From an uncultured bacterium (lineage in GTDB: Bacteria > Babelota > Babeliae > Babelales > Babelaceae), in the NCBI GenBank assembly GCA_963848965.1, contig CAWKFG010000004.1, positions 808,876 through 872,875 of the forward strand: a stretch of 64,000 nt of DNA. Reading direction: 5' to 3'. The translations under genes and the position numbers were made by a program. Under the pieces are notes generated by a model, which was given only the letters and a program-made list of their open reading frames with translations, was not told where the DNA came from and did no database searches. Shown one piece after another: positions 45,096 through 64,000 of the stretch. Position 1 is the stretch's first letter; every line of letters starts with the position of its first letter.

Positions 45096-45109
45096 AAAGA
45101 GAACTTTGA

Positions 45110-46609: not shown

Positions 46610-46647
46610 TGTAAACTCCAGTAAGCGCAAAGAAACTGGGCCCTTTT
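46610..46647 (-). mobile_element. Remnant of IscB-element 3' end abutting a start codon
   Basis: TGTAAACTCCAGTAAGCGCAAAGAAACTGGGCCCTTTT versus TGTAAAATTCCAGTAAGCGCGGAAACCGGGCCTTTT at 51361. Confidence 0.75.
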
Positions 46648-46689
46648 GTATGCAGCATATGAATAAAACAGAAGCCAGAGTACTTATAA

Positions 46690-46806
46690 TAAGATATTAA
46701 TCTTTACCATTGAGCACCCCTTTGACTAAAACTAAACAAACACCGTCTACTTTTCAGAATAATTCAAAGACAATAGAATTACAATTCTTGAGAATAAAAT
46801 TTTACT
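46690..46806 (-). repeat. Duplicated upstream region and first codons (MVKINI) of gene 35346-35696
   Basis: Near-collinear match to about 35677-35792; frame stops after 8 codons. Confidence 0.75.
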
Positions 46807-46854
46807 CATCCAGTTTATTTTAACGTCAGTTTGAGGTAGCGTTAAAATATAATT

Positions 46855-47092
46855 CAATTTGATTTTTTATGATAAATAGCATATCATTAATACATAAGGG
46901 ATAAAGAGAACTGCTTATAAGGCATACTAACCAGCCTTACTTAAAGGGCATCTCATTTACTTACCTTATCTGTAAGGGAGTTTTTTATTGTACAAGTAAG
47001 GATGCTTACTTATACTTATGGTAACTATATAATTTTAACAAGCGCTTTTCTGAGATTAAAAGATAATCGATCGCTTATAAGAGGTATACCAC
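46855..47092 (+). repeat. Conserved upstream regulatory block, copy B
   Basis: Inverted copy of the 44835-45095 blocks; TTGTAC-17-TATACT with the palindrome across the spacer. Confidence 0.65.
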
Positions 47093-48400
47093 ATGAAAAA
47101 CTTCCTTTACACTATGAAGATAACGTATTCTAGCGTTAATCGAATGCTTTTTTTAATGCTCTTTCTTTTTCAAACTATTCAACTTTACCCTATAATTGTC
47201 GCATGTACAGTACTTAAATCTCCAGAAGGTAAGTTGATCTTCTTGCTTGGTGACTATCATGATGATAATTACCCAGAAGTATGCGCACAACAACGGGAAG
47301 ATTTAGCACACATGCTTGAAAAAATTGGTCAAGTAGAGCTTTATATAGAAGATGCCGCAAATCTCTATACACCTATTGATCCTTCAAAGTCCAAATTGCC
47401 TAATGAGTTTTTAGCAAATCTGACTCACTCTATGCAAGAAAAGAATAATCCTGGCGTCATCTACCACCAACTTGACGATATGCCATTATGTCGCTTACTT
47501 AACGCTCTCATTAATCAATATACAAACTGTCCAGATTGGAAAGCATATAATCAGGATTTGGCCAAGCATGGTAAACCTGCTGGGGTAAGCATTACGTGGA
47601 CAATGCAGCAGCTTGAAGAAGAATATAATGATAAGGTAGCAGAATTAATAGTCCTCAGACAAAAAATAAGCAATGCTGCTATCAGAGAGAAACTTGAAGG
47701 TTTCCTTGCAAGGTGCTGTGGAAGTTATTCAAAATTATTAACTACCATTTATAAGAACCTCAATTTTAAGCCAGAAAGCACTTTAGCATTTATAGCTTTT
47801 AAAGGATTTTACGAGTATCTAAAAAATATAAGTACTATAATGCGTTTGGGGAAGAAAGAATTTGATGAGATGCTTGCTTGCTATAACAACTTTGATACGT
47901 TAAGCAGCGAACAGGAAAAAGGAGAGATGTGGAATACACTTTACAGTCATATCCCGAAACTTAATGGCTATATTTATTATTATGGTGTTAATCAGCAGAA
48001 AATTCCTGAAGGGTATTGGGATATTGAAAAGTTCCTTAGTTGTGCAACATGGCCCCTAATTACGCAGTATACTGCTTTAAAGCTGCTAACGAGCAATAAC
48101 CTTTATCCTGCTATAATATGCTCTGGAAATTGGCATACTCAAGGACTTGCTAAGTTTTTAGTTAATGATTGCGGTTATACAAAGATAGCGTTTGAAGGCT
48201 TTGAATGTATACCTGGTGCTACAGTATGTTGGAAAACAACGCCACAAGGCATGATTTATAGCACAGTGAAGCTTGGTATAAATATGGATTTTGCAGGTAA
48301 AGGAGAATTTCGTAAGGATGTACCTCTTGTAGGCAGGCTTTATCCTCCACTTGATATTAAAGCTACTCTTACTCAATATCAAGGTTTACCCATGCTATAG
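47093..48400 (+). CDS. Secreted family C protein (TraB/Tiki/EreA-like)
   Basis: FLLGDYH, LYIED, CSGNWHT. Confidence 0.6.
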   Translation: MKNFLYTMKITYSSVNRMLFLMLFLFQTIQLYPIIVACTVLKSPEGKLIFLLGDYHDDNYPEVCAQQREDLAHMLEKIGQVELYIEDAANLYTPIDPSKSKLPNEFLANLTHSMQEKNNPGVIYHQLDDMPLCRLLNALINQYTNCPDWKAYNQDLAKHGKPAGVSITWTMQQLEEEYNDKVAELIVLRQKISNAAIREKLEGFLARCCGSYSKLLTTIYKNLNFKPESTLAFIAFKGFYEYLKNISTIMRLGKKEFDEMLACYNNFDTLSSEQEKGEMWNTLYSHIPKLNGYIYYYGVNQQKIPEGYWDIEKFLSCATWPLITQYTALKLLTSNNLYPAIICSGNWHTQGLAKFLVNDCGYTKIAFEGFECIPGATVCWKTTPQGMIYSTVKLGINMDFAGKGEFRKDVPLVGRLYPPLDIKATLTQYQGLPML

Positions 48401-49635
48401 CCGTAACGTGCTTTATATAAGGCTTTTTGCTCTTCACTTATTTTCTTTTCTCTCTCCTGTATCTTTCTAGTATCATCTTTAAATTCTTGAGTTATATCAA
48501 GTTTCTCACTCATTTCAGGGTCAGCTTTAAGTACTTTCTCTAGGAATTTAGTGTAAAATTCAGTTGTTTCAAGAGGATTACGTATACTGACAAGAATACC
48601 TTTATCAGAAATATCGAGATCTAAATCTGTATGTAAAACGTAAAGTTTTTCTATCGTTTCTTGAATCTCGTACAAGTGGGCAGCTATAGGGTCAATATAA
48701 CCAGTATGCCCTATTGCTTTACCATTTACTTGCACTCGTATATTGTATACCTTTCCTATCTGATCATAGCCATATTTGCGCACGCTTCCTTCTTTACTAA
48801 AGGGATCTCTTAATGCACCAATGGCTCCTAAACCCTGAATCCAATCTCTTGGTGACCAAAAGCTAAAAAGAACATTGAAGTTTGCTGGCGTGTACTCTGC
48901 TCTTTCTTCTCCAGCAGTTGCCGTACGTACAGGGGGCCCTAGAAAGAACATATAATTGACAGCATTAAGCATCTTTGAATCTTTTAACACTTTAAATTCT
49001 AAGATGTGAGAGGCAGCATTGGTTACGTTAGCTCCGTGGCTATGGGATAACTCACGTATATCATAGCCTTGGTAAGACGCTACTATAAATTGGCCAAGAG
49101 TATTACCGGCATCTCTTCTTGCTCTTACAGTGTTAAATCCGGGCCAACGAAACGAGAGCACTTCAATGATAGTCTTATTATTATCAGCTATTTGCTTTGC
49201 ATATTTTAAAAGATTTTTAAATGGTTTACACTTGATATCATAATATGCAGGTGTAATAGGGCCACCACAACCGAAGAATCCTGTACCATGCATAATCATA
49301 ACTAATATACGCTGTACTGTTCTATTAATTTGAGGAGATTGATAAACGTATGCTCCTCGAATACCCATATCTTGTTCTTCGTTATAGGCAAAACCTTTAT
49401 AATGATCTTCCAATAGGTTTTGAGGTATTTCATACCACCCTTGCATATCAGGCTCTTTAACGCATGTTAAGAGTTTATAAAAAGACAGCTCCTCAATAGA
49501 TACTGCTAGTTTAGGTGCTACTATATCCTGCTCTCGCAACGTCTTTTCGAACTCCTCCTCTAGAATTTCCATTGCCCCTAATTGTCTTGCAAAGGTTATT
49601 AAGATGAAACTAAGGAAATAAATCTTACTTTTCAT
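48379..49635 (-). CDS. Secreted alpha/beta hydrolase (lipase-like)
   Basis: MHGTG, SFRWP, SHSHG, VNGKAIGH; paralog of 20582-21727. Confidence 0.75.
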   Translation of the reverse strand: MKSKIYFLSFILITFARQLGAMEILEEEFEKTLREQDIVAPKLAVSIEELSFYKLLTCVKEPDMQGWYEIPQNLLEDHYKGFAYNEEQDMGIRGAYVYQSPQINRTVQRILVMIMHGTGFFGCGGPITPAYYDIKCKPFKNLLKYAKQIADNNKTIIEVLSFRWPGFNTVRARRDAGNTLGQFIVASYQGYDIRELSHSHGANVTNAASHILEFKVLKDSKMLNAVNYMFFLGPPVRTATAGEERAEYTPANFNVLFSFWSPRDWIQGLGAIGALRDPFSKEGSVRKYGYDQIGKVYNIRVQVNGKAIGHTGYIDPIAAHLYEIQETIEKLYVLHTDLDLDISDKGILVSIRNPLETTEFYTKFLEKVLKADPEMSEKLDITQEFKDDTRKIQEREKKISEEQKALYKARYGYSMGKP

Positions 49636-49715
49636 TGATCTCTCTTATTTTATTATATTTCAATTATTAATTATAATTAAACACGGATCTTATAATCAAT
49701 AAATATTTAATTTAA

Positions 49716-49885
49716 TGTAGGAACTCTATGAAAATGTCCGCCTAAAACTCAATAGAAATGTCCGAAGTGTTAAATAATTGAAAATGAAGGACATTCGTAT
49801 GAGTAGAAAAGAGTTAGATCAGATTATTATCTTTGAATCTATAATAAAAGGTGAGCTAAATCAACGGGAAGCTGCAGAAATTCTC
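49716..49885 (+). mobile_element. Truncated copy of the IS1202-like element (left end + about 34 codons of transposase)
   Basis: Identical left IR, then MKDIRMSRKELDQIIIFESIIKGELNQREAAEIL; 5'UTR hairpin missing. Confidence 0.9.
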
Positions 49886-49899
49886 TTCTCTTTTAATAA

Positions 49900-51360
49900 T
49901 TAGTAATGAAAATAATTTTGAACTCTATGGTATGTATTAATCATTGTTGAAAAAAGCGAAGGTATCTTAAAATAAGATATAAGCACATTTTTATGCTTAC
50001 AGTTCTCAAATAAATCTTTGTAGTAAGGATCAATTAAAGTCTTCCAACCGAACTTTTTCAGCTTTGCTATCAGTACTAATTCTGCAACGCTAAGAACTTT
50101 TAAGGACTCTTCTACATCATAAATCCATAAGTATGATTCTTTTAAGGATTCACGACTTGTAAGGACATATATTCGTACCTTATCTCGGTCCCAGTAAACA
50201 GGAGTATAATCAATACGAGCATCGTAAGGATAGCTATTTATTAAAATTGGATTAGAGGTATTATTAATATTCCAGAGATACATTCGTTCTTGATTAATTA
50301 AAACAATATTTTTACTGCTTAAATCCACAGAAACTACTAGATTCACATCATTATCATTTAATTTTATCTGCCTTATAGGACATCCTTTTTCTATATTTTT
50401 AAGATCATAGATGTAGCAACCAAATGAGGAGGTAGCGACCAAAAGTGTTCCATCTGGACTTACAGTAAAAGAAGATCCTAGACAATGATTTGGTAGCTCT
50501 TTAAAAGGAAGTCTATGCCACTGTAAAGTAGCAATATTCAAAAAATCTATACAAAGTTGTTTTCCTGTTGCTACTAAGAAATCTCCTTGAGGAGTAAATT
50601 GGATTCCAGATAGTCTGTACTCCGATCCATGATCTCTTTTTAAGATTTGAACTAACGAACTTCCAGGAAGAGCAGTAAGGTCTAATGTATAGTAGTACGC
50701 GCTATTTTTTTCCACTTCACTATTAGAGTAAAGCATTAGGAGAGTTCTTTGAGCATTTATTGCAAAATAACATCTAGAACCTAATACTTTTTCAAATTTT
50801 TTAATACATATGCCTTGATCTATATCCCATAAGCATACAGTATCTTTATGCGCCGTAAAAAGGTGATTAGTACGAGGAACAAGAATTAGAGAAAGAATAG
50901 GTTCTGAACTCCGAAGAAAAGATTTCATTTCTAAAGAAGGATAAGAAAATATTCGTTCTCCACACCATTTGCTTTCGGTGTACGGAGGATTTATCTGTTC
51001 AAACTCATTCTGTAACAGCAATAAAGAATCAGTACCTTGTATAAGTTCGTGAAAATATCCTTCACGTACATTCTTTGGCAGTGCTTGTATTTTAGGAATA
51101 ATCTGTATTTTAAAGATATCCCAATAAAGAGGTAAATTTTCGTTTATTAGCTCTCTTCTTATAGTATCTATTAACTCTTGAGAAAGTTCTTTATTATCTA
51201 GTTTTTTAATAAGCTCTTGTGACTCACAATTAATGAGATTATAAGCAAGTTTTGTACATGCTATCTCTTTTAATGGCGGTGCATTATAAATAGGTTTATA
51301 GTGCAATGAATAGATTATATTACAGAAAACTAATGGTATTATATAAAGGATATTTTTCAT
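49900..51360 (-). CDS. Secreted WD40-like beta-propeller protein
   Basis: VCLWDI, QFTPQG, VSPDGTLL, YIYDL, YLWNI repeats. Confidence 0.7.
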   Translation of the reverse strand: MKNILYIIPLVFCNIIYSLHYKPIYNAPPLKEIACTKLAYNLINCESQELIKKLDNKELSQELIDTIRRELINENLPLYWDIFKIQIIPKIQALPKNVREGYFHELIQGTDSLLLLQNEFEQINPPYTESKWCGERIFSYPSLEMKSFLRSSEPILSLILVPRTNHLFTAHKDTVCLWDIDQGICIKKFEKVLGSRCYFAINAQRTLLMLYSNSEVEKNSAYYYTLDLTALPGSSLVQILKRDHGSEYRLSGIQFTPQGDFLVATGKQLCIDFLNIATLQWHRLPFKELPNHCLGSSFTVSPDGTLLVATSSFGCYIYDLKNIEKGCPIRQIKLNDNDVNLVVSVDLSSKNIVLINQERMYLWNINNTSNPILINSYPYDARIDYTPVYWDRDKVRIYVLTSRESLKESYLWIYDVEESLKVLSVAELVLIAKLKKFGWKTLIDPYYKDLFENCKHKNVLISYFKIPSLFSTMINTYHRVQNYFHY

Positions 51361-51394
51361 TGTAAAATTCCAGTAAGCGCGGAAACCGGGCCTT

Positions 51395-51590
51395 TTAAGG
51401 CGCGTCAGTCTTCGCTAAAGCTTCGCCCAACAAGGAGGAAGCGCAGGTTAAATAATTATAACTATAACCATCACATGCATGAATAAGCTTACAATACTTG
51501 TAGCTTATACCTTGTATTGTAGAGCTATCAGTGACAATATTGAAAAAGCCATTAGCTCTTATTGTTATCAATAACGAATACGTATGACAT
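51395..51590 (-). pseudogene. iscB: Internally deleted iscB
   Basis: MSYVFVIDNNK (IscB N-terminus before PLMP) joined out of frame to IRANGFFNIVTDSSTIQGISYKYCKLIHACDGYSY (IscB C-terminus). Confidence 0.85.
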
Positions 51591-51606
51591 AGTATCCTTT
51601 ATAATA

Positions 51607-51843
51607 ATCTCCCCTAACGGGGGTAAAGTTTGCCTCGCTCATGTTATAAGGCGGTATATAGTAAGAGCACTGACTTATACCCTCAATCTGTTTAACCCTT
51701 ACATTACAGAGCATGGAACTGGCAAGTATTCCATGGTGTGATCTTTAACTCTCCCTTATAACGTAGTCAAAAGCAGAGGCCTTTGACTTGAGCTGGTCAA
51801 CGTGAGCTTTTACATGCTACGCCCTTTGGGCGTGGTAGTTGAC
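51607..51843 (-). ncRNA. omegaRNA / HEARO RNA scaffold
   Basis: GTCAAC..GTTGACCAG..GACTACGTT..ACACCATGGAATACTTGCCAGTTCCATGCTCTG..TTAAACAG..CAGTG..ATAACATGAGCGAGGCAAACTTTACCCCCGTTAGGGGAG, matching HEARO conserved blocks with paired stems. Confidence 0.85.
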
Positions 51844-52090
51844 TGCTAACTCTTTACAAGTAGTAAACTGTGGATATACACAGAAAGCTTATACATTATA
51901 GTTATCACATATATAAGTAAGCGTAACCTACTTATATAATAAAAAACTCCCTTACAAGAACAAAGTAATCAATAGCTTGCTTGTAAACCTTAGATAATAC
52001 TATCTTTTTCTTTATGCTCACTTTTTAAAATATTCTATTTATCATAAAAAATCAATAAGATTTAGTAAATTGCTCTAAAAACTATAAAAA
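51844..52090 (-). repeat. Conserved upstream regulatory block, copy C (original promoter region of 49900-51360)
   Basis: Same blocks and palindrome as 44835-45095, displaced by the IscB element. Confidence 0.7.
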
Positions 52091-52242
52091 GTAAATAAAA
52101 TCAGATCTTTTACTTAAGAACTCGTACAAAGGAGTTAAAACGACATCAACTACCTTTTAAAAATTAAATTTTTATTGAATTTAAATTGAATAATAGTTTA
52201 AAATATTAAAAATAAGCTTTAAATAAAGTATAGGATTTTAAC

Positions 52243-53247
52243 ATGAATAAAATACTTTTGGCCTTATATAATTTAATAATTTTAAGTAGTTTGTGTCTTT
52301 ATGCAATGGAACAAAGCTCTTCGGATCTACAAATTATAAATAACACTAACGAGAACTTCTATATACTTCTAACCTCAGCTGATGAGCATGAGCGAGACAC
52401 TCAAATAGACACACTTGTAAGTAATATTACAGGAGATTCTAAAAAAACTTTAGGAAGAAGTTTAAAGCCTGGAGGTATTTTTAATATAACTAATTACACC
52501 TCTCAGAATTCAATCCAAGGCAACTTCCAAGATAAAGTATCAGTCAACCCCCAAGATTTAGCAATCATCAGCAACTATGCTGAAGTACAAAAAGTTCTTA
52601 ACCAACCCGGAACTAAAGTTATTACCCTACAAAAGCAGCTTAAAGCTCCTTGGTATTATGTAGGTACACCTATTACGGATTTTACTATCGATGCAAAAGC
52701 CGTTTCTACGCCACTTAAAGAACTTATTGAACTTGAGGAAGGAAAGAAAGTTACTCAACAGCCAGAATATAAAGAGGAAGCTGAGAAAGCTTTAGCACAG
52801 CTTAAGAGAGCTAGCATAGATCCTCGCATTCAAGAAGTGGCACGCGAACCTTTTATGATCGCTATTAGACAACAAGATAAAAATGCTGTAATTAGTTTTC
52901 TTCAAGCAGGCATTGATCCCAACTTTACTGATCCATCAGGACAGACTCCTCTTATAAGCGCACTAGCATCTGAAGCTTTTGATATAGCAAAGCTTCTTAT
53001 TGAAAACAATGCCGATGTTAATGTCCAAAATGAAGATAAAATGACTCCACTTATGGCTCTATTAACTACCAAAGAAACAGATCAAAGCAGAGTCAAAGAA
53101 ATAGAAACACTAGTAAGACTCCTTCTTAATAAGCACGCCGATACTAACTTGAAAAATAACTTAGGCCAAACAGCACTAGATCTGGCACGCTATAATTACT
53201 CTGATAATCCTACTCTTATAACATTACTAGAACAACATAGCAAATAG
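52243..53247 (+). CDS. Secreted protein with C-terminal ankyrin repeats
   Basis: GQTPLISA, MTPLMAL, GQTALDLA. Confidence 0.85.
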   Translation: MNKILLALYNLIILSSLCLYAMEQSSSDLQIINNTNENFYILLTSADEHERDTQIDTLVSNITGDSKKTLGRSLKPGGIFNITNYTSQNSIQGNFQDKVSVNPQDLAIISNYAEVQKVLNQPGTKVITLQKQLKAPWYYVGTPITDFTIDAKAVSTPLKELIELEEGKKVTQQPEYKEEAEKALAQLKRASIDPRIQEVAREPFMIAIRQQDKNAVISFLQAGIDPNFTDPSGQTPLISALASEAFDIAKLLIENNADVNVQNEDKMTPLMALLTTKETDQSRVKEIETLVRLLLNKHADTNLKNNLGQTALDLARYNYSDNPTLITLLEQHSK

Positions 53248-53558
53248 CTACAAATTTTTTAGGATCACAGTAAAAGAAGATTGCTTGCTTTAGAATAACG
53301 CCCTGATCATTATTTTCTCCTTACTACCCTTTGATTATTATGTACTGCAAACAATACGTAAACTCAATAACATCGAGTACAGCATACTCTAAATAAGAAT
53401 GACCCTAACGGCAATGATAGAAATAGTAAGATCTAGTATACTCTTCATATAAATAAATTTTTTATTGACTCTATTAGGACTTCATTTTACTCTGCTAATA
53501 ATCTTAATAGATCTCTTAATCTTTTCCAACAGACCTTAATGTCTAATAAGGAGTTTTC

Positions 53559-54233
53559 GTGATAAAAGTTCTATTTTTATCTTTGTTTATCCTTGTAACA
53601 ACAAATATACAAGGAATGGAGCAAGCAGTTCCAAAGGTATTTAACGCTATTCAGGAAAATTTCAGAGGGTTAGCTCACAATATGCTTTCTGAAATTGATA
53701 CTGGACTCTATGTTTTGGTAGATGATGTACTCAGAGATCACCGAAAAATTCAATCTAATAATGGAAACGTATCTACAATTTCAGCAGCTCTTCGTAACCC
53801 TAATCTCTTTATAGTAAATGAGGAACATAGCAATATAGCAGAACTTCTAAGTGAAGAAGAAATAACTGCAGTAAAAGCAAACAAATACTTCATATCAATA
53901 CTCAACCAAAAACAAAAAGAAGTACTTCTTCACCATATTCATAAATATAATCAAAACTTATTCAATGAGATAAGATCACAATTAGCATACATACATAAAG
54001 AAGATCCGGCTGTATCTCAAAAAATAACTGACACCAAAAATGTTCAAGAACTTAAAACTGTTTTAAATACTAAAGAAGTACACAAGACTCTTAAAAATCT
54101 CATGTTAACGCTTGAGGCAGAAACTGAAACACTAAAAGTGCTCAAAGAATGTCTACAAATACTTAGAAGCTTGGTTACTCGTCTTACTTACTTTGTACAA
54201 GCGGAAGAAGCCTTTACCACAACGGCTAAATAA
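53559..54233 (+). CDS. Hypothetical secreted helical protein
   Basis: AAGGAG RBS + GTG start; signal peptide ending QG-ME. Confidence 0.7.
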   Translation: MIKVLFLSLFILVTTNIQGMEQAVPKVFNAIQENFRGLAHNMLSEIDTGLYVLVDDVLRDHRKIQSNNGNVSTISAALRNPNLFIVNEEHSNIAELLSEEEITAVKANKYFISILNQKQKEVLLHHIHKYNQNLFNEIRSQLAYIHKEDPAVSQKITDTKNVQELKTVLNTKEVHKTLKNLMLTLEAETETLKVLKECLQILRSLVTRLTYFVQAEEAFTTTAK

Positions 54234-54300
54234 TTAGCATTTCAGCTATAGTAACAAAATACAGGCACATATAAATAAGACAAGCTTATTATATTTTCTT

Positions 54301-55221
54301 TTACTCAATCTTACAGCCGGCTACTTTTGAAACAGCTTCTTTTGATTGTTGAAAAGATCTTGTAGCAAAAGGAAAAAATAACTCTTCTCCTTTACCAGTA
54401 CTTAAAACAGTATAAGCACGTTGTATAAGTGCAAGAATTGCCTTTCGTTCAAGACCTTCAATATTCGCTTTTACTTCTTGCCAACCAGCAGTTAAATCAC
54501 TCTGTGCTTTGCTGAGAGACTTGCCATAAACTTCTAGCATACTTCTGTCTGCACTGCTAGGCCTAGGAAGAACTCCTAGTATGTATTCGGGTCTTATTGG
54601 CATTCCAGCTTTAAGAGCTTCGTCTGCACGTTTAAATAGACCACCCAAATAAGAGCATTTACCAAGGAAAATGTTTCCTTCTACGCTTGAATAAGGAATT
54701 GAATTAAACTCAACCCTATAAGGCGCAAGCGTAGCAATCTGAGAAGGCATATACCCTAGTAAGGCTGGCTGAGATATTACCATTTCTACACCGCCTTGAC
54801 CAATTTCCCCTTGCATCTCAGTAGCATAATCCTTTGGTCCCTTTATAACTTTAGGTATAGCTACGTACTGTCTGAATACGCCATGAGGGCTTAACACAAG
54901 ATGAGAGATATTTCTAGGATCACTAATCCAAACATACTCTTGAGGATATACTACCCTTGAAAGAGGTATGTCTTTGTCGGTCCCTTTTTCATATATATAT
55001 TCTACAACTACTGCATCATTTCTATTGTTTCTGATAAAGATCCGTTGTTGCTGAGAACCAGGTTCTAATTTGGCAAAGTATACAGATGGATCACGTGTTG
55101 GTTCTGATTCTTCTAGTTTTGTTAAGTAGGGCGTTATAGATGGCTTTTCTGGTTCCATACAATAAAGCCAAAATGGCATAGCCAAGATAGAGATGGCAAA
55201 TGAAAGAAAAGTTTTTTTCAT
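54301..55221 (-). CDS. Secreted protein family B
   Basis: IFIRNNRNDA, LSPHG, RPEYILGVLP, LIQRAYTVL. Confidence 0.8.
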   Translation of the reverse strand: MKKTFLSFAISILAMPFWLYCMEPEKPSITPYLTKLEESEPTRDPSVYFAKLEPGSQQQRIFIRNNRNDAVVVEYIYEKGTDKDIPLSRVVYPQEYVWISDPRNISHLVLSPHGVFRQYVAIPKVIKGPKDYATEMQGEIGQGGVEMVISQPALLGYMPSQIATLAPYRVEFNSIPYSSVEGNIFLGKCSYLGGLFKRADEALKAGMPIRPEYILGVLPRPSSADRSMLEVYGKSLSKAQSDLTAGWQEVKANIEGLERKAILALIQRAYTVLSTGKGEELFFPFATRSFQQSKEAVSKVAGCKIE

Positions 55222-55400
55222 GCTACTTCCTATTTTCAAGTTATAAATCAGTTATCTATAATAGCTTCTATTACTAATGTTTAAACAATAGCTCAAATGA
55301 GATATAGTAATGACCTAGAATTAATCAGCACCATATGATTCTGCCCTATACTTTTAGCGCAGGAAACATAAAATAGTATCAATTATCAGTCCTTAAGCAC

Positions 55401-56279
55401 TTAATCAATTGGATCTCTCTTACATGCAGCTTTTCTAAAAAGTTCGTTTGATTTATTAAATGCTGGATATACAGTCTTTCTAAATGCTTCTATATTATCC
55501 TTGCTAGGATCCAGTAAAGCTACAAAGGCACTACCAATAATCCCCGTTATAGCTTCTTTATTAAGTATTCCAGCACTAGGTTTATATTGAGCTTCATCCC
55601 AACCAGCCAATAAATTATTTCGAGCCATATCTAAAGAGTCTTGATAAGCTTTTGTCACTGTACCTGGCCTAGGAAGAACCCCTAAAATATACTCAGGTAG
55701 TATTTCTTCCTTTTTACTTTCTTTACTATTAAAAGCAGTACCCGCGCGTCTAAATATACTTCCAAGCCATCTGCATTTCTCAAGAGGAAGAATAGTTGCT
55801 ATGTTAATAGATTTGTAAGGCTCAACCTTAACATCATAAAAAACATATCCAGGATCTATAGTAAGCAAAGCTGCTCCTTGAGGGGAAATTTTTCCTTTAG
55901 TTTGAGCAGTATAATCCTCTGTTTGCACTTTCCCAAAAGTTACTGTTTCAGGATCTAGCAACCATCCCTTTATTTGACCGTGAGGGCTAACCTTAAGTGA
56001 AATAAGATCTCGAGGGTCATCAATCCAAATAATCTCTCCTGGGTAAACAACTCTGTGAAGAATGTTGCCTGTTTTGTCTTTCGAACTATATTGATATGTT
56101 ATAACTGCTGCAGTTGAGTTATTTTCTATAAACAGTCTTTCTTGTGTTGCGGATTCAATAGGATCTTTCCCTTTTTTTAATTCCAAATCCCCTGGCCCTT
56201 GATCGCGTGACATACAATATGATGTTGTGCCAACTAAATTTATAAGAAAAAAACTAATAAAAAACAGAAACTTTTTCAT
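55401..56279 (-). CDS. Secreted protein family B
   Basis: LFIENN, VSPHG, PEYILGVLP. Confidence 0.8.
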   Translation of the reverse strand: MKKFLFFISFFLINLVGTTSYCMSRDQGPGDLELKKGKDPIESATQERLFIENNSTAAVITYQYSSKDKTGNILHRVVYPGEIIWIDDPRDLISLKVSPHGQIKGWLLDPETVTFGKVQTEDYTAQTKGKISPQGAALLTIDPGYVFYDVKVEPYKSINIATILPLEKCRWLGSIFRRAGTAFNSKESKKEEILPEYILGVLPRPGTVTKAYQDSLDMARNNLLAGWDEAQYKPSAGILNKEAITGIIGSAFVALLDPSKDNIEAFRKTVYPAFNKSNELFRKAACKRDPID

Positions 56280-56387
56280 TTTTATCTCCTTGTATTTATT
56301 ATTATATTTTAATTATAAAAATGCATGATAGTAAAAATCAACAATCTTCTCATTTATTACTTTACAATATCTCATCTTGCATAATAA

Positions 56388-56416
56388 TTGACAGTCATTA
56401 ATTTTAATACTATTAT
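56388..56416 (+). promoter_or_regulatory. sigma70-type promoter of ankyrin family A gene
   Basis: TTGACA-17 bp-TATTAT with the shared GTCATTAAT spacer start. Confidence 0.7.
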
Positions 56417-56576
56417 TTACAAAAGACATGCTAGACTTGTTAATATATAGAATTTTAGAGCCATATTATGTTAGTACTTTACCTATCTCCTTTATAGAAA
56501 CAGCTTATATTATTCATATTTAGCATTCCGTTAAAAATATTGCTCTATTCTAAAAACAGTGTTAAAGGACAATCTA

Positions 56577-58244
56577 ATGAAAACAGTAGTCTATGTAGGA
56601 TTAATAAGTGTATTATATTTTTCTTATTCTTTAACAATGGAAAAAACACAAGAAAATAGAATTGGACAAAAACTTAAAGATACTCTTATAGTGTTATCAG
56701 GTAAAGCTTCCACTTATCTTAAAGATTATCCTAAGTACACTCCTTTAATGAAAGCTGCGGAAAAAGGCGACACAAAAACTGTTACATCACTTTTAGAAAA
56801 TGGAAAAATAGAGATTAAAGACTATCGAGAATCTTTAGAAAGAGCTACTATTAACGGACACACAGAAACAGTAGAGATACTTCTTATGGCGGCTGCTCGT
56901 GTCAATGCCAAAAATGCAGAAACCATTGCTTTACAGCTGGCTGCAAGATGTGGTCACATAAAAATAGTTGAGCTACTTTTAGATAAGGGTGCTAATATTA
57001 ATGCCAAAGATTTTTTCAAGAGCACTTCCTTAATGCTTGCTGCACAAGAAGGCCATAAGGAAGTTGTCAGCTTACTTTTAAAAAGAGGTGCTGATGTAGA
57101 TATCCAAGATAAAGATGGTTTCACAGCACTAAGGTATGCTGCAAGTGGTGGTCATAACAAGATAGTAGAAATGCTTATCGATAAAGTTACTAATATAGAG
57201 ACTAAAGATAATATAATAGGCAAGACTGTTCTAATGTATGCCGCAGGATCGTGCAGCCCTGATATTGTAGCAAAGATTTTAGCTCATGGTGCTGATGTTA
57301 ATGCTAAAAGCCGCTACGGTGACACTGCCTTAATGAGCGCTGCTATGATGGGAAATAAAGATATAGCCGCTTTGCTTTTAGACAGTGGAGCTCATATTAA
57401 TGATACGGATAAGCGTGGTAGTACTGCCTTGATAGATGCAGCGTATCACAACAACAAATTAGTTGTTGCTTTGCTTTTAGAACGAGGAGCTCTTATAGAT
57501 GCTCAAGATGAACTTGGTAAAACTGCACTCATGCACGCTGCAGAACAAAATGCTAAGGAAGCGCTAGCTTTTCTTTTGAGTAAAAACGCTGATATTAGTG
57601 TTATAGACATATTTGATAATACCGCCTTATCGTTGGCTACAAGAAGAGATAATAAAGAAGCTGTTCAATTATTAGAGCTTCATTTTCTACCAGAAGTACA
57701 GGCTTATCTTAGTAATCCCTTAGAATATGTTAGAAAAGATACCAATAGATTTGCTACTACGAGTAAAGGACAAACGTGGCTTATGGTTGCCTGCATCTTT
57801 GGCCATACTGATGTTATAGCTTTCTACAAAGATTATTCTCCTGACTATATTAATACAAAAGATCAGTATGAGCTTACCGCTTTCGATTATGCTTGTAGGT
57901 ACAATCCTGATATTCTTGCCACGCTTATTAACACTTTTGGTACAAAAATTAACCAATTAAAATCACAACAAACTTCGCTCTTTCGTACATGTATGTCATA
58001 TATTCCTTATCTTGGTGAAACAAGTCGAAAAGACGAGCTTCTTAGTTGCGCTGTAGAAAGAGGAATGCTACAACTTGTTAATGTTCTCTTAGGTATAGGA
58101 GCACAACCTACTATACAGCTTGCCCAGAAAGCACAAGAAAAGGAGTACTTAAAGATAATGCATAGGCTCCTTTTTTCTAGTCTCGCTTCCACTTCTGAAT
58201 ATAAAAAAGAGCCCTATCTTGCTCTTAGTGGCTTATTTAAATAA
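56577..58244 (+). CDS. Secreted ankyrin-repeat protein, family A
   Basis: Start MKTVV after AAGGA; ankyrin repeats; C-terminus LALSGLFK. Confidence 0.92.
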   Translation: MKTVVYVGLISVLYFSYSLTMEKTQENRIGQKLKDTLIVLSGKASTYLKDYPKYTPLMKAAEKGDTKTVTSLLENGKIEIKDYRESLERATINGHTETVEILLMAAARVNAKNAETIALQLAARCGHIKIVELLLDKGANINAKDFFKSTSLMLAAQEGHKEVVSLLLKRGADVDIQDKDGFTALRYAASGGHNKIVEMLIDKVTNIETKDNIIGKTVLMYAAGSCSPDIVAKILAHGADVNAKSRYGDTALMSAAMMGNKDIAALLLDSGAHINDTDKRGSTALIDAAYHNNKLVVALLLERGALIDAQDELGKTALMHAAEQNAKEALAFLLSKNADISVIDIFDNTALSLATRRDNKEAVQLLELHFLPEVQAYLSNPLEYVRKDTNRFATTSKGQTWLMVACIFGHTDVIAFYKDYSPDYINTKDQYELTAFDYACRYNPDILATLINTFGTKINQLKSQQTSLFRTCMSYIPYLGETSRKDELLSCAVERGMLQLVNVLLGIGAQPTIQLAQKAQEKEYLKIMHRLLFSSLASTSEYKKEPYLALSGLFK

Positions 58245-58658
58245 CTCTGATTTGATTATAGCAAGATATGTTACTTCTTGAATCTCACTTGGCATACAAA
58301 GCCCAAATGGAGCAAAATTCTTTGAAGCTTACGTATACAAGACATCAGAAGTTCTTTATTAAAAGTCCAAGCATTTGTCTATTATAATAGACATCAATTA
58401 TACTTTTTGTTAAAAACAGTTATTCAACAAATCTCATCATGTGAAGCAGTTTTCTACTATTAAGGCAGTATAGAGCTCTAAGTTCTCGAGATAAGAGATA
58501 AGGATAGCCCGAAGGATCCTATAGTAAATTCACTATCTCTTAACTAGCATATCGCATCTCTTGAATATAGAACAATCACCATGCTATAATTCAATTGCAA
58601 AAGTATTCTATTCATAATTGGACTACTTACTAACTACTAAGTCTTTCCTAAGTTTACG

Positions 58659-59015
58659 TCAATTATTAAATCGTGTCACACGTATTGTTGTATCTGTAGC
58701 TATAATAAAATTGCCCTCAATTTCATGAGAATGCTTAGAAAAAACCGCTTGTATAGCAGTTATTTTACTAGCCATACGTTCATCTACAAGACGTAGCAAA
58801 ATAACTCCTGCATGCTTTCTGTTTTGCTTAAAAATCATTTCACCAAAATCTTTATCACAAGTAATAAGAATAAGCCCTTCAGCAAAGGCCTTTTCAAGAA
58901 TTACATCATCGCTTGCTTGTGGCATTACGTGCTTAACTGCCACTACAGCATAATTATTATCTTTTAACCATTGGGCAACCGAGTTTCCAACACATTCGTC
59001 AACGAGAAACTTCAT
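58659..59015 (-). CDS. DUF5615 PIN-like toxin (Mut7-C/VapC45 type)
   Basis: MKFLVDECV, ASDDVIL, LITCDKDFG, GVILLR. Confidence 0.88.
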   Translation of the reverse strand: MKFLVDECVGNSVAQWLKDNNYAVVAVKHVMPQASDDVILEKAFAEGLILITCDKDFGEMIFKQNRKHAGVILLRLVDERMASKITAIQAVFSKHSHEIEGNFIIATDTTIRVTRFNN

Positions 59016-59017
59016 AC

Positions 59018-59275
59018 TTACTCTTTACAGCCTTCGGCAAGCAAAGGAGTAAACGTTATATCTTCAAGAGTTTCTTTGGCAAAAAGCAAACAAGCCAAAA
59101 TGTCCTTCTCTGTAAGTCGATCATATTCTTCTAAAATTTCTTTTGTTTCTATGCCTTGAGCAAGCAACCCTAAAATATGTTCAACAGTAAGACGAGTTCC
59201 CTTAACTATAGGCTTACCAAGCATTACCTGAGGATCAATAGTAATGCGTTGCAAGAGTTCATGTCTGCTTTTCAT
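59018..59275 (-). CDS. DUF433 antitoxin
   Basis: RITIDPQVMLGKPIVKGTRLTVEHIL..LAQG...EILEEY..L...DI.ACL.FA. Confidence 0.9.
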   Translation of the reverse strand: MKSRHELLQRITIDPQVMLGKPIVKGTRLTVEHILGLLAQGIETKEILEEYDRLTEKDILACLLFAKETLEDITFTPLLAEGCKE

Positions 59276-59536
59276 CAATAACTCCTAGAATACTGAAACT
59301 GGGCTTATAAACCAAACGCTTTCTAAGGATCAAAACCCATATAAGTAACTATAATATACTTACAATTTATCGTTTTATACTTTCTTAGTATATAATAAAT
59401 TTTGTATTTGTTAACTATATGTCCTGGTTCAATACATAGTGGACTTAGGGATAAACTTTAATTAGGCAAGCTTTCATTAATTATTTTTGCTTGACATATA
59501 TGCTTATTAAAAACTAAAGTTTTCTATCATCCAATT

Positions 59537-60408
59537 TTATTGAACACAGCATGATTTTTTACTTTCTCTTGCTTTCAGATCTTGAAGAAGATCTCTTAAT
59601 GAAGTAAAGGATGGGCATTTCCATAGACCGATAGTGCCATCTTTACATCCTGTAAGTAGTGTATAAGGATCTAAAACACAAAGACATTGAACTTCACTTG
59701 TATGAGAAAGAACTTGTAATGGTTTTAGGTATTCATGAGAAGCTAGATTCCATATCTTCACTGTACTGTCTAATGAGCTGCTTACTAAATAATCTTTGTC
59801 TAATAACTTCAGCGCAGTAACTGCCTTAGGATGAGCATCCCACTGCTTGATTACTGCTTCTCTTGCAAGACTAACAAGCTGAATTTTACCATTATTAAGA
59901 CCGATCGCTACTGTGTTTTCATTAAGTACTTCTATACATCTTACTGCATCCTCTACAACTATTCGCTTTATCTGTTTACCAGTTCCTCTGTCCCACAAAC
60001 GTACAGTTTTATCAACAGAGCCAGATACAATACAGTTTGGGGTTACTTGCGCAAGACATAATACTCCTTTTTCATGACCTTTAAATAATTGAGCATATTC
60101 TCCTGTCTTTATACTCCATACATGTATAATTCCATCACGTGAGCCAGAAAGAATATGATCACTATCTACTATAAGTATGCAATAGATTTCATTAGTAGCT
60201 CCTATAAAAATACGCTCTTCTCTTAAGGAGTCTTTATTCCACACGCGAATTGTTCTATCAGCAGAACCAGAAATAAAATTAAGGTTGTCTAATTGTTGCA
60301 GAGTATATATTCCTGCTGAATGGCCTCCTGAAAGAGGAGTAAGTAAAAATAGCTCATTAGAAGCAGTTTTAAATTCCCTAATTCTTGAGAAGCTTATTAA
60401 ATAGACTA
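59537..60408 (-). pseudogene. 5'-truncated WD40-repeat gene ending in CaaX (CCVQ)
   Basis: Frame continues upstream of the GTG at 60244 with another WD repeat (GHSAGIYTL..ISGSADRTIRVW) up to a stop, with no ATG or signal peptide. Confidence 0.7.
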
Positions 60409-60497
60409 GTTATATCTTCTTCTTACTAGGATTTCTTGGGCTTTTTATCAATTTATGCCATACTAAAGGAGTAAAGTTAAAGATAAAGGGGCTATGC

Positions 60498-62171
60498 ATG
60501 AAATTGCTTCCTATTGGTATAAGCGATTTTAAGACTGTTATAGAGGGTGATTATTACTATGTTGATAAAACGCTTCTCATTAAAGAGCTCTTAGAAAACG
60601 CTGGTCAAGTTGTTCTTATCCCTCGCCCAAGGCGTTTTGGAAAGACACTTAATCTCTCTATGCTTAAATACTTCTTTGAGTCTACACCTACAAGTAACGA
60701 ACATCTTTTCTATAACACACATATCTGGAACGATGAGAAACATAAGGTTAAGCAAGGAAAATACCCTGTTATTTTTTTGACCTTTAAGGGAATTAAAGCA
60801 AATACCTGGTTAGATGCATATGAATATCTTATATTTACTATAGCCCAAGAGTTTCGTCGGCATGCCCCCTCTTTATTACCGCAACTTCCTGATTATGAGA
60901 GAAAAACTTATGAGGCTTTGTTATCAAAAACAGCTTCACAGGTAGAATACAGTCAGAGTCTTTTATTTTTAAGTGAATTACTCAAAAGGTACCATAACCA
61001 ACAAGTTATAGTACTCATTGATGAATATGATGCTCCTATCCATACAGCATATACTCACGGATATTATAAAGAGCTTATAAGTTTCATACAAGGATTACTA
61101 ACTGCTGTACTTAAAGATAATTCTTTTCTCGAACGGGCCATTCTGAGTGGTATCTTACGGACAGCAAAAGAAGGCATCTTTTCAGGACTTAATAACTTGA
61201 GCGTTTTTACCATGCTTAATAGAGAGTTTTGTGATAAATTTGGTTTTACTCCTTATGAAGTTCATGAGCTCCTTAGAAAGCAAGAATTGCTTTTAGAAGA
61301 AGATAATATAAAAAATTGGTATAACGGATATCATGCCAATGGAGCCACACTCTATAACCCTTGGTCTCTTCTTGAGTGCGTGAGAAGTAGAGGGATATTA
61401 AAACCTTATTGGGCTAATACAAGCGATAACTATTTAGTAAAAAAGCTTATAGCTCGAGCTAGTGAAGAAGCTAAAGTTGAATTAGAGTCTTTGTTAGTAG
61501 ACGTCCCTGTTGTAAAAGAAATTGACGAAAGACTTGCTTTTCCTACAATTGAACAAAGTTCAACAGCATTATGGAGTCTTCTCTTATGGACTGGCTATGT
61601 AACGTATAACTTTCACGAAATTAAAGAAGGTAAAGATATCTGTACGCTTATACTTCCTAATAAAGAAATAAAGCTTTTATATAAGCACCTATTACAAGAA
61701 ATTATTGAACAAACTTTACCTAGCTCTCGCTCTAACATTCTTTTTCAAGCGCTTATCGAAGCAAACGTACCTCAAATAGCAGAATTACTCCAAGCATTTG
61801 TACTTAATAGCATGAGCGTGTTTGATATACCAGACACAGAGCCAGAGCGAAGCTATCATCTTTTTGTATTAGGCCTTCTCGTTACAATAAGCGATTACTA
61901 TGAAGTTTCTTCCAATAGAGAAAGTGGTTATGGTAGATATGATATTATGCTTATTCCTAAAGATATGACCAAGCCTGGTTATATCATCGAATTCAAAAAA
62001 GTATCTTCTTTGCAACAAGAAACATTAGAAAATACAGCCCAAAAAGCTCTCGAACAAATAACAGAAAAAAACTATGCTCAAGAGCTTAAAAAACGAGGAA
62101 TTAAAACAATCCTTGCCCTCGGTATAGCATTTAAAGGCAAACAGATACTGCTTAAAGCAAAAAACGTTTAG
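60498..62171 (+). CDS. AAA-ATPase-like protein with PD-(D/E)xK nuclease (PDDEXK_9) domain
   Basis: LPIGISDF, YYVDKT, RPRRFGKTL, LIDEYD, SNRESGYGRYDI..IIEFK. Confidence 0.92.
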   Translation: MKLLPIGISDFKTVIEGDYYYVDKTLLIKELLENAGQVVLIPRPRRFGKTLNLSMLKYFFESTPTSNEHLFYNTHIWNDEKHKVKQGKYPVIFLTFKGIKANTWLDAYEYLIFTIAQEFRRHAPSLLPQLPDYERKTYEALLSKTASQVEYSQSLLFLSELLKRYHNQQVIVLIDEYDAPIHTAYTHGYYKELISFIQGLLTAVLKDNSFLERAILSGILRTAKEGIFSGLNNLSVFTMLNREFCDKFGFTPYEVHELLRKQELLLEEDNIKNWYNGYHANGATLYNPWSLLECVRSRGILKPYWANTSDNYLVKKLIARASEEAKVELESLLVDVPVVKEIDERLAFPTIEQSSTALWSLLLWTGYVTYNFHEIKEGKDICTLILPNKEIKLLYKHLLQEIIEQTLPSSRSNILFQALIEANVPQIAELLQAFVLNSMSVFDIPDTEPERSYHLFVLGLLVTISDYYEVSSNRESGYGRYDIMLIPKDMTKPGYIIEFKKVSSLQQETLENTAQKALEQITEKNYAQELKKRGIKTILALGIAFKGKQILLKAKNV

Positions 62172-62371
62172 TTTCTACCATACTTACTTGGTTAAAAATA
62201 GGCAACTGTTCAGTTTCTTTCCTATTCATGAAATTTCCAAAGCATTGGAAATAGAACCTTTGCTACTTTAGAAGTTTTTATTTTGGTCTACAACAGGAAG
62301 TTATCACTTAGAGCAGTATTGAAATATTCTTAACTCTAGACAATTTTAATTTTCAAGATTAAAATTGTCCA

Positions 62372-63568
62372 ATGAGGTGTAAGGTGATAAAACGAGATAT
62401 AAGTATAAAGCTACAAGCTCTTGTAAAACAGTTTCCAGCAATAGCTGTAGTAGGACCACGCCAATCAGGTAAAACAACGTTGGTTCGTACTTTGTTTCCC
62501 GATTACCATTATTTTTCTTTTGAAGATCCCGATATTCGTGTGTTAGTGCAAGCTGATCCTCGAGGGTTTCTTAATCGCTATAAAGATGAGCACGGAATCA
62601 TTCTTGATGAAGTGCAACATGTTCCCTTTTTGTTTTCCTATATGCAAACGGATATTGATCTTAATAAGAAAATTGGTCATTTTATTGTAACAGGCTCACA
62701 AAATCTTCTAGTCAGTGAAGCTATTACACAAAGCTTAGCAGGCCGTATCGCCATACTGACTCTTTTACCTCTTTCTCTCCATGAGCTTGAGCAAGCTGGC
62801 CAGTTACCAGCAACTCTTGATGAAGCTCTTTTTAAAGGCTCTTATCCAGCTCTTTATACAGAAGCTCAATCTTCTCCTCTTGATTGGTATCGTAGTTATG
62901 TTAATAGTTACTTGGAACGTGATGTAAGAAGTATTAAGAATATTACGGATCTTAGCTTATTTCAAAAGTTTTTAAAACTTTGTGCAGGCCGCGTTGGACG
63001 GCTCCTGGATCTTACTTCATTAAGCAATGATACTGGTATAAGTATTCATGCTGTTAAGCAATGGCTTTCTGTTCTTGAAGCGAGCTATGTTATCTTTCTC
63101 TTGCAACCTTATTATCGAAATGTAGGCACAAGGGTCGTTAAATCGCCTAAGTTGTATTTTTATGATACCGGTGTAGTATGCTCGCTATTATCAATTACTG
63201 ATCCTGGACAACTTTTTACCCATTACTTACGCGGAAGTATTTTTGAGTCATATATTATAGCTGATCTTATTAAACAACGGTATAATAAAGGGCTTAATCC
63301 CGACTGCTATTTCTGGCAAGATAAAGGGGGCGAAGAAGTTGATTGTATTATTGAGCGTGCTCAAGGGCCTCGTGCGCTAGAGATTAAGGCAGGTGAAACA
63401 ATAAACTCCGAATTTTTTAAGAATTTATTGTTGTGGAATAAAGCTGCAGGAACCTCTTTTGAAAGTAATATCCTTGTTTATGGAGGCAACAAAGATTTGC
63501 CTGGTGCGCAAGCTCGCATACTGAGTTGGCGTAGCATAGGAACTCTAGCACTAGAAAAAGAAATGTAA
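62372..63568 (+). CDS. AAA_14 ATPase with DUF4143 domain
   Basis: GPRQSGKTT, LDEVQ, TGS, KSPKLYFYDTG, EVD..LEIK. Confidence 0.92.
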   Translation: MRCKVIKRDISIKLQALVKQFPAIAVVGPRQSGKTTLVRTLFPDYHYFSFEDPDIRVLVQADPRGFLNRYKDEHGIILDEVQHVPFLFSYMQTDIDLNKKIGHFIVTGSQNLLVSEAITQSLAGRIAILTLLPLSLHELEQAGQLPATLDEALFKGSYPALYTEAQSSPLDWYRSYVNSYLERDVRSIKNITDLSLFQKFLKLCAGRVGRLLDLTSLSNDTGISIHAVKQWLSVLEASYVIFLLQPYYRNVGTRVVKSPKLYFYDTGVVCSLLSITDPGQLFTHYLRGSIFESYIIADLIKQRYNKGLNPDCYFWQDKGGEEVDCIIERAQGPRALEIKAGETINSEFFKNLLLWNKAAGTSFESNILVYGGNKDLPGAQARILSWRSIGTLALEKEM

Positions 63569-63572
63569 CACT

Positions 63573-63866
63573 TTAAAGTGATTTTATGGCATAAGGCAGT
63601 ACGATCTCATTTCTTTGCTCATTACGAGCACTACAAGGAGTAAATTTTATGTCTTCAAGAGTTTCTTTGGCAAAAAGCAAACAAGCCAAAATATCCTTCT
63701 CTGCAAGTCGATCATATTCCTGTAAAATTTCTTTTGTTTCTATGCCTTGCGCAAGCAATCCTAAAATATATTGAACTGTAAGACGAGTTCCCTTTACTAG
63801 AGGCTTACCAAGCATTACCTGAGGATCAATAGTAATGCGTTGCAAGAGTTCATGTCTGCTTTTCAT
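63573..63866 (-). CDS. DUF433 antitoxin, second copy without PIN partner
   Basis: Nearly identical to 59018-59275 up to FTP, then an unrelated tail. Confidence 0.85.
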   Translation of the reverse strand: MKSRHELLQRITIDPQVMLGKPLVKGTRLTVQYILGLLAQGIETKEILQEYDRLAEKDILACLLFAKETLEDIKFTPCSARNEQRNEIVLPYAIKSL

Positions 63867-64000
63867 CTCTATCTCCGTAAGCGTAGAAACTACGTCTTAA
63901 AAGACGTAGAGTAGCGGTTGTTATACTAAGCCGGCAGCAAGAGTAAGTTTATACTTACTCTAGGCTGTACGGCAATCTCCCCTTACGGGGGTAAAGTTAG
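63867..64000 (-). mobile_element. Second non-autonomous IscB/omegaRNA element, 3' part (runs off window end)
   Basis: 63974-63998 matches the omegaRNA 3' hairpin at 51606-51630 (24/25 nt); end hairpin CTACGTCTTTTAAGACGTAG-TTTC..CGCTTACGGAG..|ATGA; no iscB in between. Confidence 0.8.

Follow-up and report, generated by a model that had tools for sequence, protein, structure and literature searches.

An IscB transposon family that probably persists on start codons, its Shine–Dalgarno-like end presumably standing in for the displaced ribosome-binding site

We analyzed a 64,000-nt stretch of DNA from an uncultured Babelaceae bacterium (the window), which is the final 64 kb of contig C4 and ends where that contig ends. 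Four of its genes carry, directly 5' of the ATG, a related minus-strand sequence of ~30–45 nt that derives from IscB transposons. Together with further copies in the same genome (1.73 Mb in 5 contigs, 37% GC, ~84% covered by open reading frames (ORFs)), these sequences quite probably represent a single ISC/IscB family of the IS200/IS605 superfamily, present in all states of decay and persisting on start codons, where an element end resembling a Shine–Dalgarno (SD) motif replaces the displaced ribosome-binding site (RBS). The four junctions, at 51360, 46609, 63866, and 59275, had been pointed out in an earlier inspection of the letters and their ORFs (the sequence-only reading), and all four are as described there. 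In gene orientation, they read ..CGCGCTTACTGGAATTTTACA|ATGAAAAAT at 51360, ..GCGCTTACTGGAGTTTACA|ATGAAAAAT at 46609, ..ACGCTTACGGAGATAGAG|ATGAAAAGC at 63866, and ..AGTATTCTAGGAGTTATTG|ATGAAAAGC at 59275. The GGAA (51360) and the three GGAG motifs (46609, 63866, and 59275) reported upstream of these ATGs are likewise present, at a distance of 9–11 nt. The elements and stubs in the window are the following:

51361..51843, minus strand: non-autonomous IscB (ISC) element, 483 bp, with boundaries taken from a paralog alignment
51623..51843, minus strand: omegaRNA scaffold of this element (Rfam HEARO, RF02033), matched by cmscan over model positions 1–211 of 211 with 133.7 bits (gathering score 83) and E 1.5e-27
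51361..51405, minus strand: element end adjoining the host ATG (left end, LE, in Meers' terms), identified from sequence and the top end-profile match, E 1e-8
51844..51863, minus strand: 5' flank of the 483-bp element, ..TACTTGTAAAGAGTTAGCA, which aligns with the leader of a paralog from 44835 onward
46610..46654, minus strand: element-end stub of ~45 nt, GGGCCCAGTTTCTTTGCGCTTACTGGAGTTTACA, with GGAG at -10 (nhmmer E 1.4e-5)
63867..64000, minus strand: second-subfamily element truncated at the contig end (nhmmer E 1.9e-4)
59276..59319, minus strand: degenerate element-end stub, GCCCAGTTTCAGTATTCTAGGAGTTATTG, with GGAG at -10 (nhmmer E 0.0027 and 0.14 in the first and second rounds)

The 483-bp element consists of the omegaRNA, followed by the first 11 iscB codons fused to the last ~50, and then the element end. 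In blastn, it matches the only full-length IscB element of the genome (C4:425707-424125; contig coordinates refer to this assembly, G000) with 97.6% identity over full-length positions 1–288 and 84% over positions 1407–1583, and, judged from this alignment, it is an internal-deletion derivative of that copy. The full-length element carries an omegaRNA and a 430-aa IscB with Pfam matches to RRXRR (E 2e-67) and HNH (E 5e-13), and its end motif overlaps the iscB stop codon and abuts the ATGAAG of a multicopper-oxidase gene. The HEARO match and this full-length copy with the same end confirm that the ends belong to IscB elements, as the sequence-only reading had proposed; its label of 3' end holds in the orientation of iscB, whereas in the nomenclature of Meers et al. 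(10.1101/2023.03.14.532601) the same end is the left end of the transposon. HEARO is matched four times in the genome, once directly upstream of iscB, and no other Rfam family was matched. Within the end at 51361–51405, a small hairpin seen in the fold (GCC-TTAAAA-GGC) is followed by GTTTCCGCGCTTAC and then by the GGAA at -11. The omegaRNA is gone from two of the four window copies, and no element similarity was found further upstream of the stub at 46610–46654 (blastn against the full-length copy). The element at 63867–64000 holds the end ..CTACGTC-TTTTAA-GACGTAG-TTTCTACGCTTACGGAGATAGAG along with the 3' part of its omegaRNA, of which 25 nt match omegaRNA positions 217–241 of the full-length copy.

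The host genes at these junctions, and the comparator for the one at 51360, are as follows:

49900..51360, minus strand: host gene of 486 aa whose ATGAAA is the insertion target (ORF; sub-threshold WD40/beta-propeller Pfam matches only)
45110..46609, minus strand: ankyrin-repeat gene of 499 aa, counted from its ATG at 46609 (Pfam Ank_2, E 8e-61)
63573..63866, minus strand: DUF433 gene, 97 aa (Pfam DUF433, E 2e-20)
58659..59275, minus strand: toxin–antitoxin-type pair of a DUF433 gene (85 aa, 59018–59275) and a DUF5615/PIN-like gene (118 aa, 58659–59015), both by Pfam
44577..45100, minus strand: paralogous 85-aa ORF with an uninterrupted leader, identified by alignment, the "empty site" comparator for 51360

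To survey the whole genome, a first-round profile was made from the last 45 nt of five ends, with the ATG excluded. It returned 20 matches at E ≤ 10, and ATGA directly followed each of the best 16. In the second round (nhmmer), all 18 matches at E ≤ 0.68 abutted ATGA; two to four weaker matches had the same junction, and the remaining weak ones lacked an ATG. Across 20 aligned copies, the junction motif was ATGAAA (15), ATGAAG (2), ATGAAC (2), or ATGATA (1), which bears out the proposed ATGA target, itself already published (Kapitonov 2016; Meers 2023). Of the 18 copies, 14 sit where an ORF of ≥100 aa has its first ATG, and three more lie at Pfam-supported genes of 61–97 aa (a ferredoxin and two DUF433 genes). 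The last one precedes a 19-aa ORF, 104 nt ahead of a 148-aa ORF; this copy (C1:408072; locus L082 1537), where ATGAAA opens just 19 codons, is the only one of the 18 off a real gene start and may be an intergenic insertion or mark a frameshifted gene. Separately, a match to the end pattern with one mismatch at C4:94644-94662 (locus L017) is followed 4 nt later by an ATGAAG that opens only nine codons, and may be another decayed copy or a chance occurrence.

Pfam matches above the curated cut-off were obtained for 20 of the 21 downstream ORFs scanned, the exception being the WD40-like gene at 51360. The targets include genes for a ProRS-like synthetase (ProRS, prolyl-tRNA synthetase), endonuclease V, PgpA, RlaP, a ferredoxin, a MutS-like protein, and a multicopper oxidase, as well as a C2H2 zinc-finger protein, ankyrin proteins, a glycosyltransferase, and an AAA ATPase. 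Effector and toxin–antitoxin genes, which the sequence-only reading had singled out, are thus not especially represented, given that ProRS, endonuclease V, PgpA, and ferredoxin are among the targets. Downstream DNA is shared by two loci only, the DUF433 genes at 59275 and 63866, which are 94% identical over 232 nt, so that the copies there are not independent and 17 of the 18 insertions are. These 17 independent sites imply past mobility. The states of the element range from the full-length copy through gene-less omegaRNA elements of 344–483 bp and minis of 51 and 66 bp down to stubs of 30–100 nt. Both minis, at C1:448358 (51 bp, beginning GTCAACTAGCGCC) and C4:355060 (66 bp, beginning GTCAATTACCACGCC), keep the two termini, have no coding capacity, and start with the 5' terminus of the omegaRNA (GTCAAC/GTCAAT). 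At a distance of ~25 nt from the junction there is a short hairpin (GCC-TTAAAA-GGC or CTACGTC-TTTTAA-GACGTAG), which folds no better than shuffled sequences.

The motif could in principle be a conserved leader or regulatory RNA encoded by the host, unrelated to the transposon and merely adjacent to it, and 12 of the 20 aligned copies indeed show no match to the element in blastn on the 5' side of the end motif. We nevertheless consider this origin highly improbable. The motif is contiguous with the full-length element and overlaps its iscB stop codon, and the 51- and 66-bp copies open with the omegaRNA terminus. It is also absent from ProRS orthologs, and HEARO is the sole Rfam match, while folds of the leaders are not significant.

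Next, we evaluated how far the position of the copies departs from that of their potential target sites. ATGA is the commonest gene start in this genome: 55% of long ORFs begin with ATGA, 31% with ATGAA, and 16% with ATGAAA. Because ATGA(A) is the target and at the same time the most frequent gene start, the copies land base-exactly on start codons. Counting both strands, the genome holds 6443 ATGAA sites, of which 472 open an ORF of ≥100 aa as its first ATG, 5206 fall within long ORFs, and 765 fall elsewhere. The 14 of 18 copies at such starts compare with 7.3% of all ATGAA sites (P=3e-13). A fairer baseline, from which gene disruption is removed, consists of the starts (471) and the non-start ATGAA sites outside long ORFs (711), i.e., 40% starts; against it, 17 of 18 copies lie at starts (P=1.8e-6), or 16 of 17 independent events (4e-6), although copies were detected by similarity, which over-samples those that decay slowly. 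Enrichment at starts over all target sites, the check that the sequence-only reading had suggested, is hence found with either baseline (P=3e-13 for all ATGAA, ~2e-6 for starts plus non-coding sites), and the second comparison indicates that purging of gene-breaking insertions alone is insufficient to explain it. This bears on a passive account, under which elements insert at any ATGA, the harmless copies survive, and the GGAG serves end recognition by the transposase instead of translation. The target motif by itself accounts for base-exact junctions, GTTTC and CGCTTAC beside the hairpin are as well conserved as GGAG, and 45% of genes lack an SD 4-mer, all of which fits a by-product. However, 17 of 18 copies lie at starts in spite of 711 non-start against 471 start ATGAA sites, and the terminal 10–15 nt vary among subfamilies while the purine-rich motif stays. 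We regard this account as rather unlikely.

Two empty sites support insertion directly 5' of an intact gene. The DNA 5' of the 483-bp element (51844 onward) aligns with the region upstream of the paralog at 44834 up to its ATGAAAAATATCC; since this alignment reaches the ATG, the insert is precisely bounded and the ORF untouched, and removal of the element yields a match to the uninterrupted paralog, as the sequence-only reading had noted. By this comparison, the native leader of the WD40-like gene now lies displaced at 51844–51863; from its position, and if the published IscB architecture applies, this stretch would also be the guide segment of the omegaRNA. The second site is the ProRS-like gene, the only one found in the assembly, in which the last 30 nt of the leader are all element-derived. 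Its orthologs in three related genomes from two genera (G002, G042, and G010; 65–68% protein identity) start MKQS.. at ATGAAA, ATGAAG, or TTGAAG, and are preceded by sequence unrelated to the element leader; in two of the three, the upstream gene ends 11–23 nt ahead of the start. Hence the start codon is native and the element leader was gained in the lineage of this genome, and these orthologs provide the empty alleles in relatives that the sequence-only reading had asked for. Paralog and orthologs together uphold its view that the element went in downstream of the native leader and ahead of the ATG, leaving the ORF whole. There is no target duplication at either the paralog or the ortholog empty sites. 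Synteny with the relatives does not extend to the region upstream of ProRS. The ProRS-like gene itself (C4:542906-544150, 415 aa) has matches at E ≤ 1e-20 in 5 of 26 family genomes, with the copy in G006 in pieces with internal stops; the family genomes without it presumably use another ProRS type.

Metagenomic reads were also consulted for the junction at 51360. Four soil-metagenome runs yielded only three contigs, of 151–204 nt, and neither a joint nor an empty allele was found among them. One contig (run X1, 172 nt, depth 3.4) covers 51283–51404 exactly and then skips 30 nt at 51405–51434. The skipped segment looks like a hairpin inserted into the element tail; the ProRS and ferredoxin stubs have it too, and a single short contig is weak evidence for its absence.

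We then scanned 41 genomes of the family with an end model based on sequence alone. Element-like ends were detected in four of them, namely this genome (18), G047 (9), G002 (4), and G010 (1), while single weak matches in G011 and G013 look like chance. ATGA comes after all 16 ends of the relatives (three genomes, two genera, including two further G010 ends from a pattern search), in 10 cases as the start of an ORF of ≥100 aa. One of these ORFs has an N-terminus that we take to be typical of Y-family polymerases. Mini copies of about 60–70 bp occur in G047. The ends of other subfamilies and of the relatives diverge after CGCTTA and keep a purine-rich motif 6–10 nt from the junction (TAGGAGATTTAAAA|ATG in G047, AAAGGTTCACAAA|ATG in G002, and GGAGGAATTTTA|ATG in G010). 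Outside the phylum, 24 of 26 related IscB loci were examined (two were truncated), four of them from one genome and with exact ends not mapped; in nine of the 24, an ORF of ≥100 aa begins with an ATGA located 28–86 nt past the iscB stop, and at a tenth locus the ATGA opens a 59-aa ORF resembling a signal peptide.

Whether the element end could act in translation was assessed from the position of its SD-like motif. An SD 4-mer (GGAG, AGGA, GAGG, or AAGG) occurs at -20..-4 of 54.5% of 1502 long-ORF starts, compared with 15% inside genes and 12% far upstream, and native GGAG peaks at -9/-10 within a range of -12 to -8. Among the 18 copies at E ≤ 0.68, 15 have the first base of the element GGAG or GGAA between -9 and -11, two carry GGGG at -8, and one carries GAGG. 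The SD-like motif of the element ends thus sits at the spacing native to this genome. The built-in RBS of the sequence-only reading stands as far as an SD-like motif at a normal distance is concerned, and motif placement makes it likely that this SD is used for translation. The accompanying idea of a structured 5' leader is not supported outside the copies that retain an omegaRNA: the last 60 nt plus 20 nt of the gene fold no better than shuffles, with z-scores of -1.42 to +1.07 for six leaders and no significant structure. A motif search of the assembly for the 3' end of the 16S rRNA (anti-SD) found none. A difference in age, with GGAA young and GGAG old as a result of tuning after insertion, was considered and dropped, since it is inseparable from subfamily differences. 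At four loci (C2:55976, C1:572242, C4:209021, and C4:355060), which precede the genes for a glycosyltransferase, endonuclease V, RlaP, and PgpA, no more than 31–39 nt separate the target gene from the ORF before it, all of them element-derived, and the 66-bp mini at C4:355060 extends back into the called upstream ORF.

Taken together, we propose the following course of events. The family would integrate without duplication directly 5' of ATGA(A), the complement of the TTCAT read by TnpA and IscB. An insertion at an ATGAA inside a gene would destroy that gene, while at a start codon the ORF would stay whole and co-oriented. Because copies at start codons leave the ORF whole, the persisting copies would be those on start codons. 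There, the last 10–12 nt of the element, with GGAG or GGAA at the native SD distance, would stand in for the displaced native RBS, presumably through read-through from the host promoter and use of the element SD. The rewired expression of host genes proposed in the sequence-only reading is likewise conjecture. Element identity, target, intact ORFs, empty sites, and placement of the SD-like motif are direct observations.

This arrangement may be an adaptation (promoter trap, plug-in RBS) or a by-product. In the adaptive version, the evolved SD of the end offsets the cost of landing, a host promoter drives the promoterless omegaRNA–iscB unit, and the stubs are under purifying selection as initiation regions. 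We hold this to be possible, but only tentatively so. Stated for the family as a whole, and with the same reserve, ISC/IscB elements could be start-codon promoter traps that capture the host promoter and 5' untranslated region (the latter as guide), restore translation with their last bases, and leave a 30–66-nt end as the lasting initiation region of host genes, in this genome ~20, among them the only ProRS-like gene found in the assembly. Ends that differ after CGCTTA yet keep a purine-rich motif (e.g., GGAGTTTTACA, GGAGATAGAG, TAGGAGATTTAAAA, AAAGGTTCACAAA, and GGAGGAATTTTA) would be in line with it, as would the four fully element-derived gaps, the mini that enters an upstream ORF, the element-derived last 30 nt of the leader of the only ProRS-like gene, and the excess at starts over intergenic ATGAA (P about 2e-6). 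Co-orientation with the upstream gene, reported in a figure legend of the Meers preprint (10.1101/2023.03.14.532601), would fit as well. On the other hand, similarity-based detection favours well-preserved copies, the SD columns are not conserved better than their neighbours, and promoter-like sites in 51200–52300 are at chance level (4 against 4.7 expected, with 0 terminators).

Several points also weigh against persistence on start codons with a replaced RBS as we propose it. The excess over intergenic ATGAA sites needs preferential retention or slower decay at starts. The expectation that the SD columns would be more conserved than their neighbours was rejected: in the 20-copy alignment they are no better conserved than the neighbouring CGCTTAC, with GCTT the most conserved block, and hence there is no specific sign of selection on the SD. 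Moreover, 45% of starts lack an SD 4-mer, and an SD may not be required in this genome. The Y1 transposase TnpA (PF01797) had no match in the assembly, which is 88.7% complete, and the elements here may no longer be mobile. Finally, insertions of IS200/IS605 elements are expected to be biased toward the lagging strand, and no such bias was seen by GC skew, with 10–11 target genes leading and 7 lagging.

If the proposed scenario is correct, it shows how a transposon with a 4–5-nt target can persist in a compact genome that is ~84% covered by ORFs: the target coincides with the commonest gene start, and the element end can substitute for the displaced RBS. Should the element motif truly be used, ~1% of genes, including those for ProRS, endonuclease V, PgpA, and ferredoxin, would be translated from transposon-derived leaders. 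For annotation, the ends provide base-exact start codons and mark leaders of mobile origin.

A few further observations concern the surroundings of individual copies. The beginning of contig C5 (C5:1-5190; locus L066 1-1690) is GC-rich DNA with foreign-looking ORFs that joins abruptly inside a HEARO RNA (..GGCGAGGCT|GTCGTGCGG) and looks like a chimeric assembly join. The 5' part of this HEARO RNA fits the 3' part of the omegaRNA at the end of C4 (window 63961–64000) with a 2-nt overlap, and because of this fit the two are probably parts of a single element. The 5' flank of the C5 HEARO (L066 1904-2000, minus strand) is, by eye, homologous to the region upstream of the DUF433 gene at 59275 (59276–59420) and ends in TAGGAGATAGAG; the final 10 nt of this flank (GGAGATAGAG) recur as the final 10 nt of the element at 63867 (63867–63880). 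To the eye, this pattern may reflect two successive insertions at one start codon, conceivable because the ATGAA target survives each insertion. In the window, 60498–63568 holds two adjacent ATPase genes, one with AAA-ATPase_like and PDDEXK_9 (557 aa) and one with AAA_14 and DUF4143 (398 aa); both gene types are often found in mobile or defence settings. For the MutS-like protein at C1:445308-448358, contigs C1 and C4 hold at least nine more loci with partial paralogs (28–35% identity), which makes this MutS-domain-V family unusually large for a 1.7-Mb genome.

Overall, the core of the mechanism, the N|ATGA target and the TTCAT motif, is already known. ISC transposons were defined by Kapitonov, Makarova and Koonin in 2016 (PMC4810608); in the part of that paper covered here, several families (ISC1-1_MA, ISC2-1_HM, and ISC2-1_MS) insert at N|ATGA without duplication, and ISC elements are described as having 5'-GT termini, subterminal hairpins, and an IscB gene with a conserved 5' region, as being mostly non-autonomous, and as reaching down to derivatives of 62 bp in K. 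racemifer. The elements described here share the IscB gene with its conserved 5' region, the 5'-GT, the insertion at ATGA without duplication, the predominance of non-autonomous copies, and the short derivatives, and possibly also the hairpins. They differ from that account in that nearly all copies lie on gene starts, carry an SD-like motif, and are mostly stubs or minis; none of the terms "start codon", "initiation codon", "ribosome", or "Shine" occurs in PMC4810608.

For the Geobacillus stearothermophilus IscB element (GstIscB), the sections covered of Meers 2023 (10.1101/2023.03.14.532601) give TTCAT 5' of LE as the target-adjacent motif (TAM), read by both TnpA and IscB, an omegaRNA bounded by the right end with its guide taken from the flank, tnpA rarely linked to iscB, and IscB elements co-oriented with the upstream gene (figure legend). 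Since TTCAT is the complement of ATGAA, the end on the ATG is the counterpart of LE, and the flank 5' of the omegaRNA is, by position, that of the guide. The complement ATGAA is found at 19 of 20 junctions here, as in GstIscB; unlike it, the present elements are known from sequence alone, in an assembly in which no TnpA was found. The single mention of "start codon" in the covered text of that preprint is in the legend on the orientation of the upstream gene and does not concern a downstream ATG. More broadly, our literature search, whose coverage did not extend to Weinberg 2009 or Altae-Tran 2021, returned nothing that ties ISC insertion to start codons or an element end to an RBS.

With HEARO (RF02033), the window shares a full-length match of 133.7 bits, and differs in the two of four copies without omegaRNA. 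HEARO RNA was reportedly described by Weinberg et al. in 2009. The 51- and 66-bp copies, non-coding and with both termini, resemble the PATE and REP-like minis of IS200/IS605 elements, which are named in the covered part of PMC4810608, and are set apart from them by their position directly on start codons and their SD-like motif. Relative to the literature covered, three features of the present family are new: the near-exclusive occupancy of start codons, even when compared with intergenic target sites; the retention of an SD-like motif by ends that otherwise diverge; and the fossil ends of 30–66 nt that form the leaders of ~20 ordinary and housekeeping genes.

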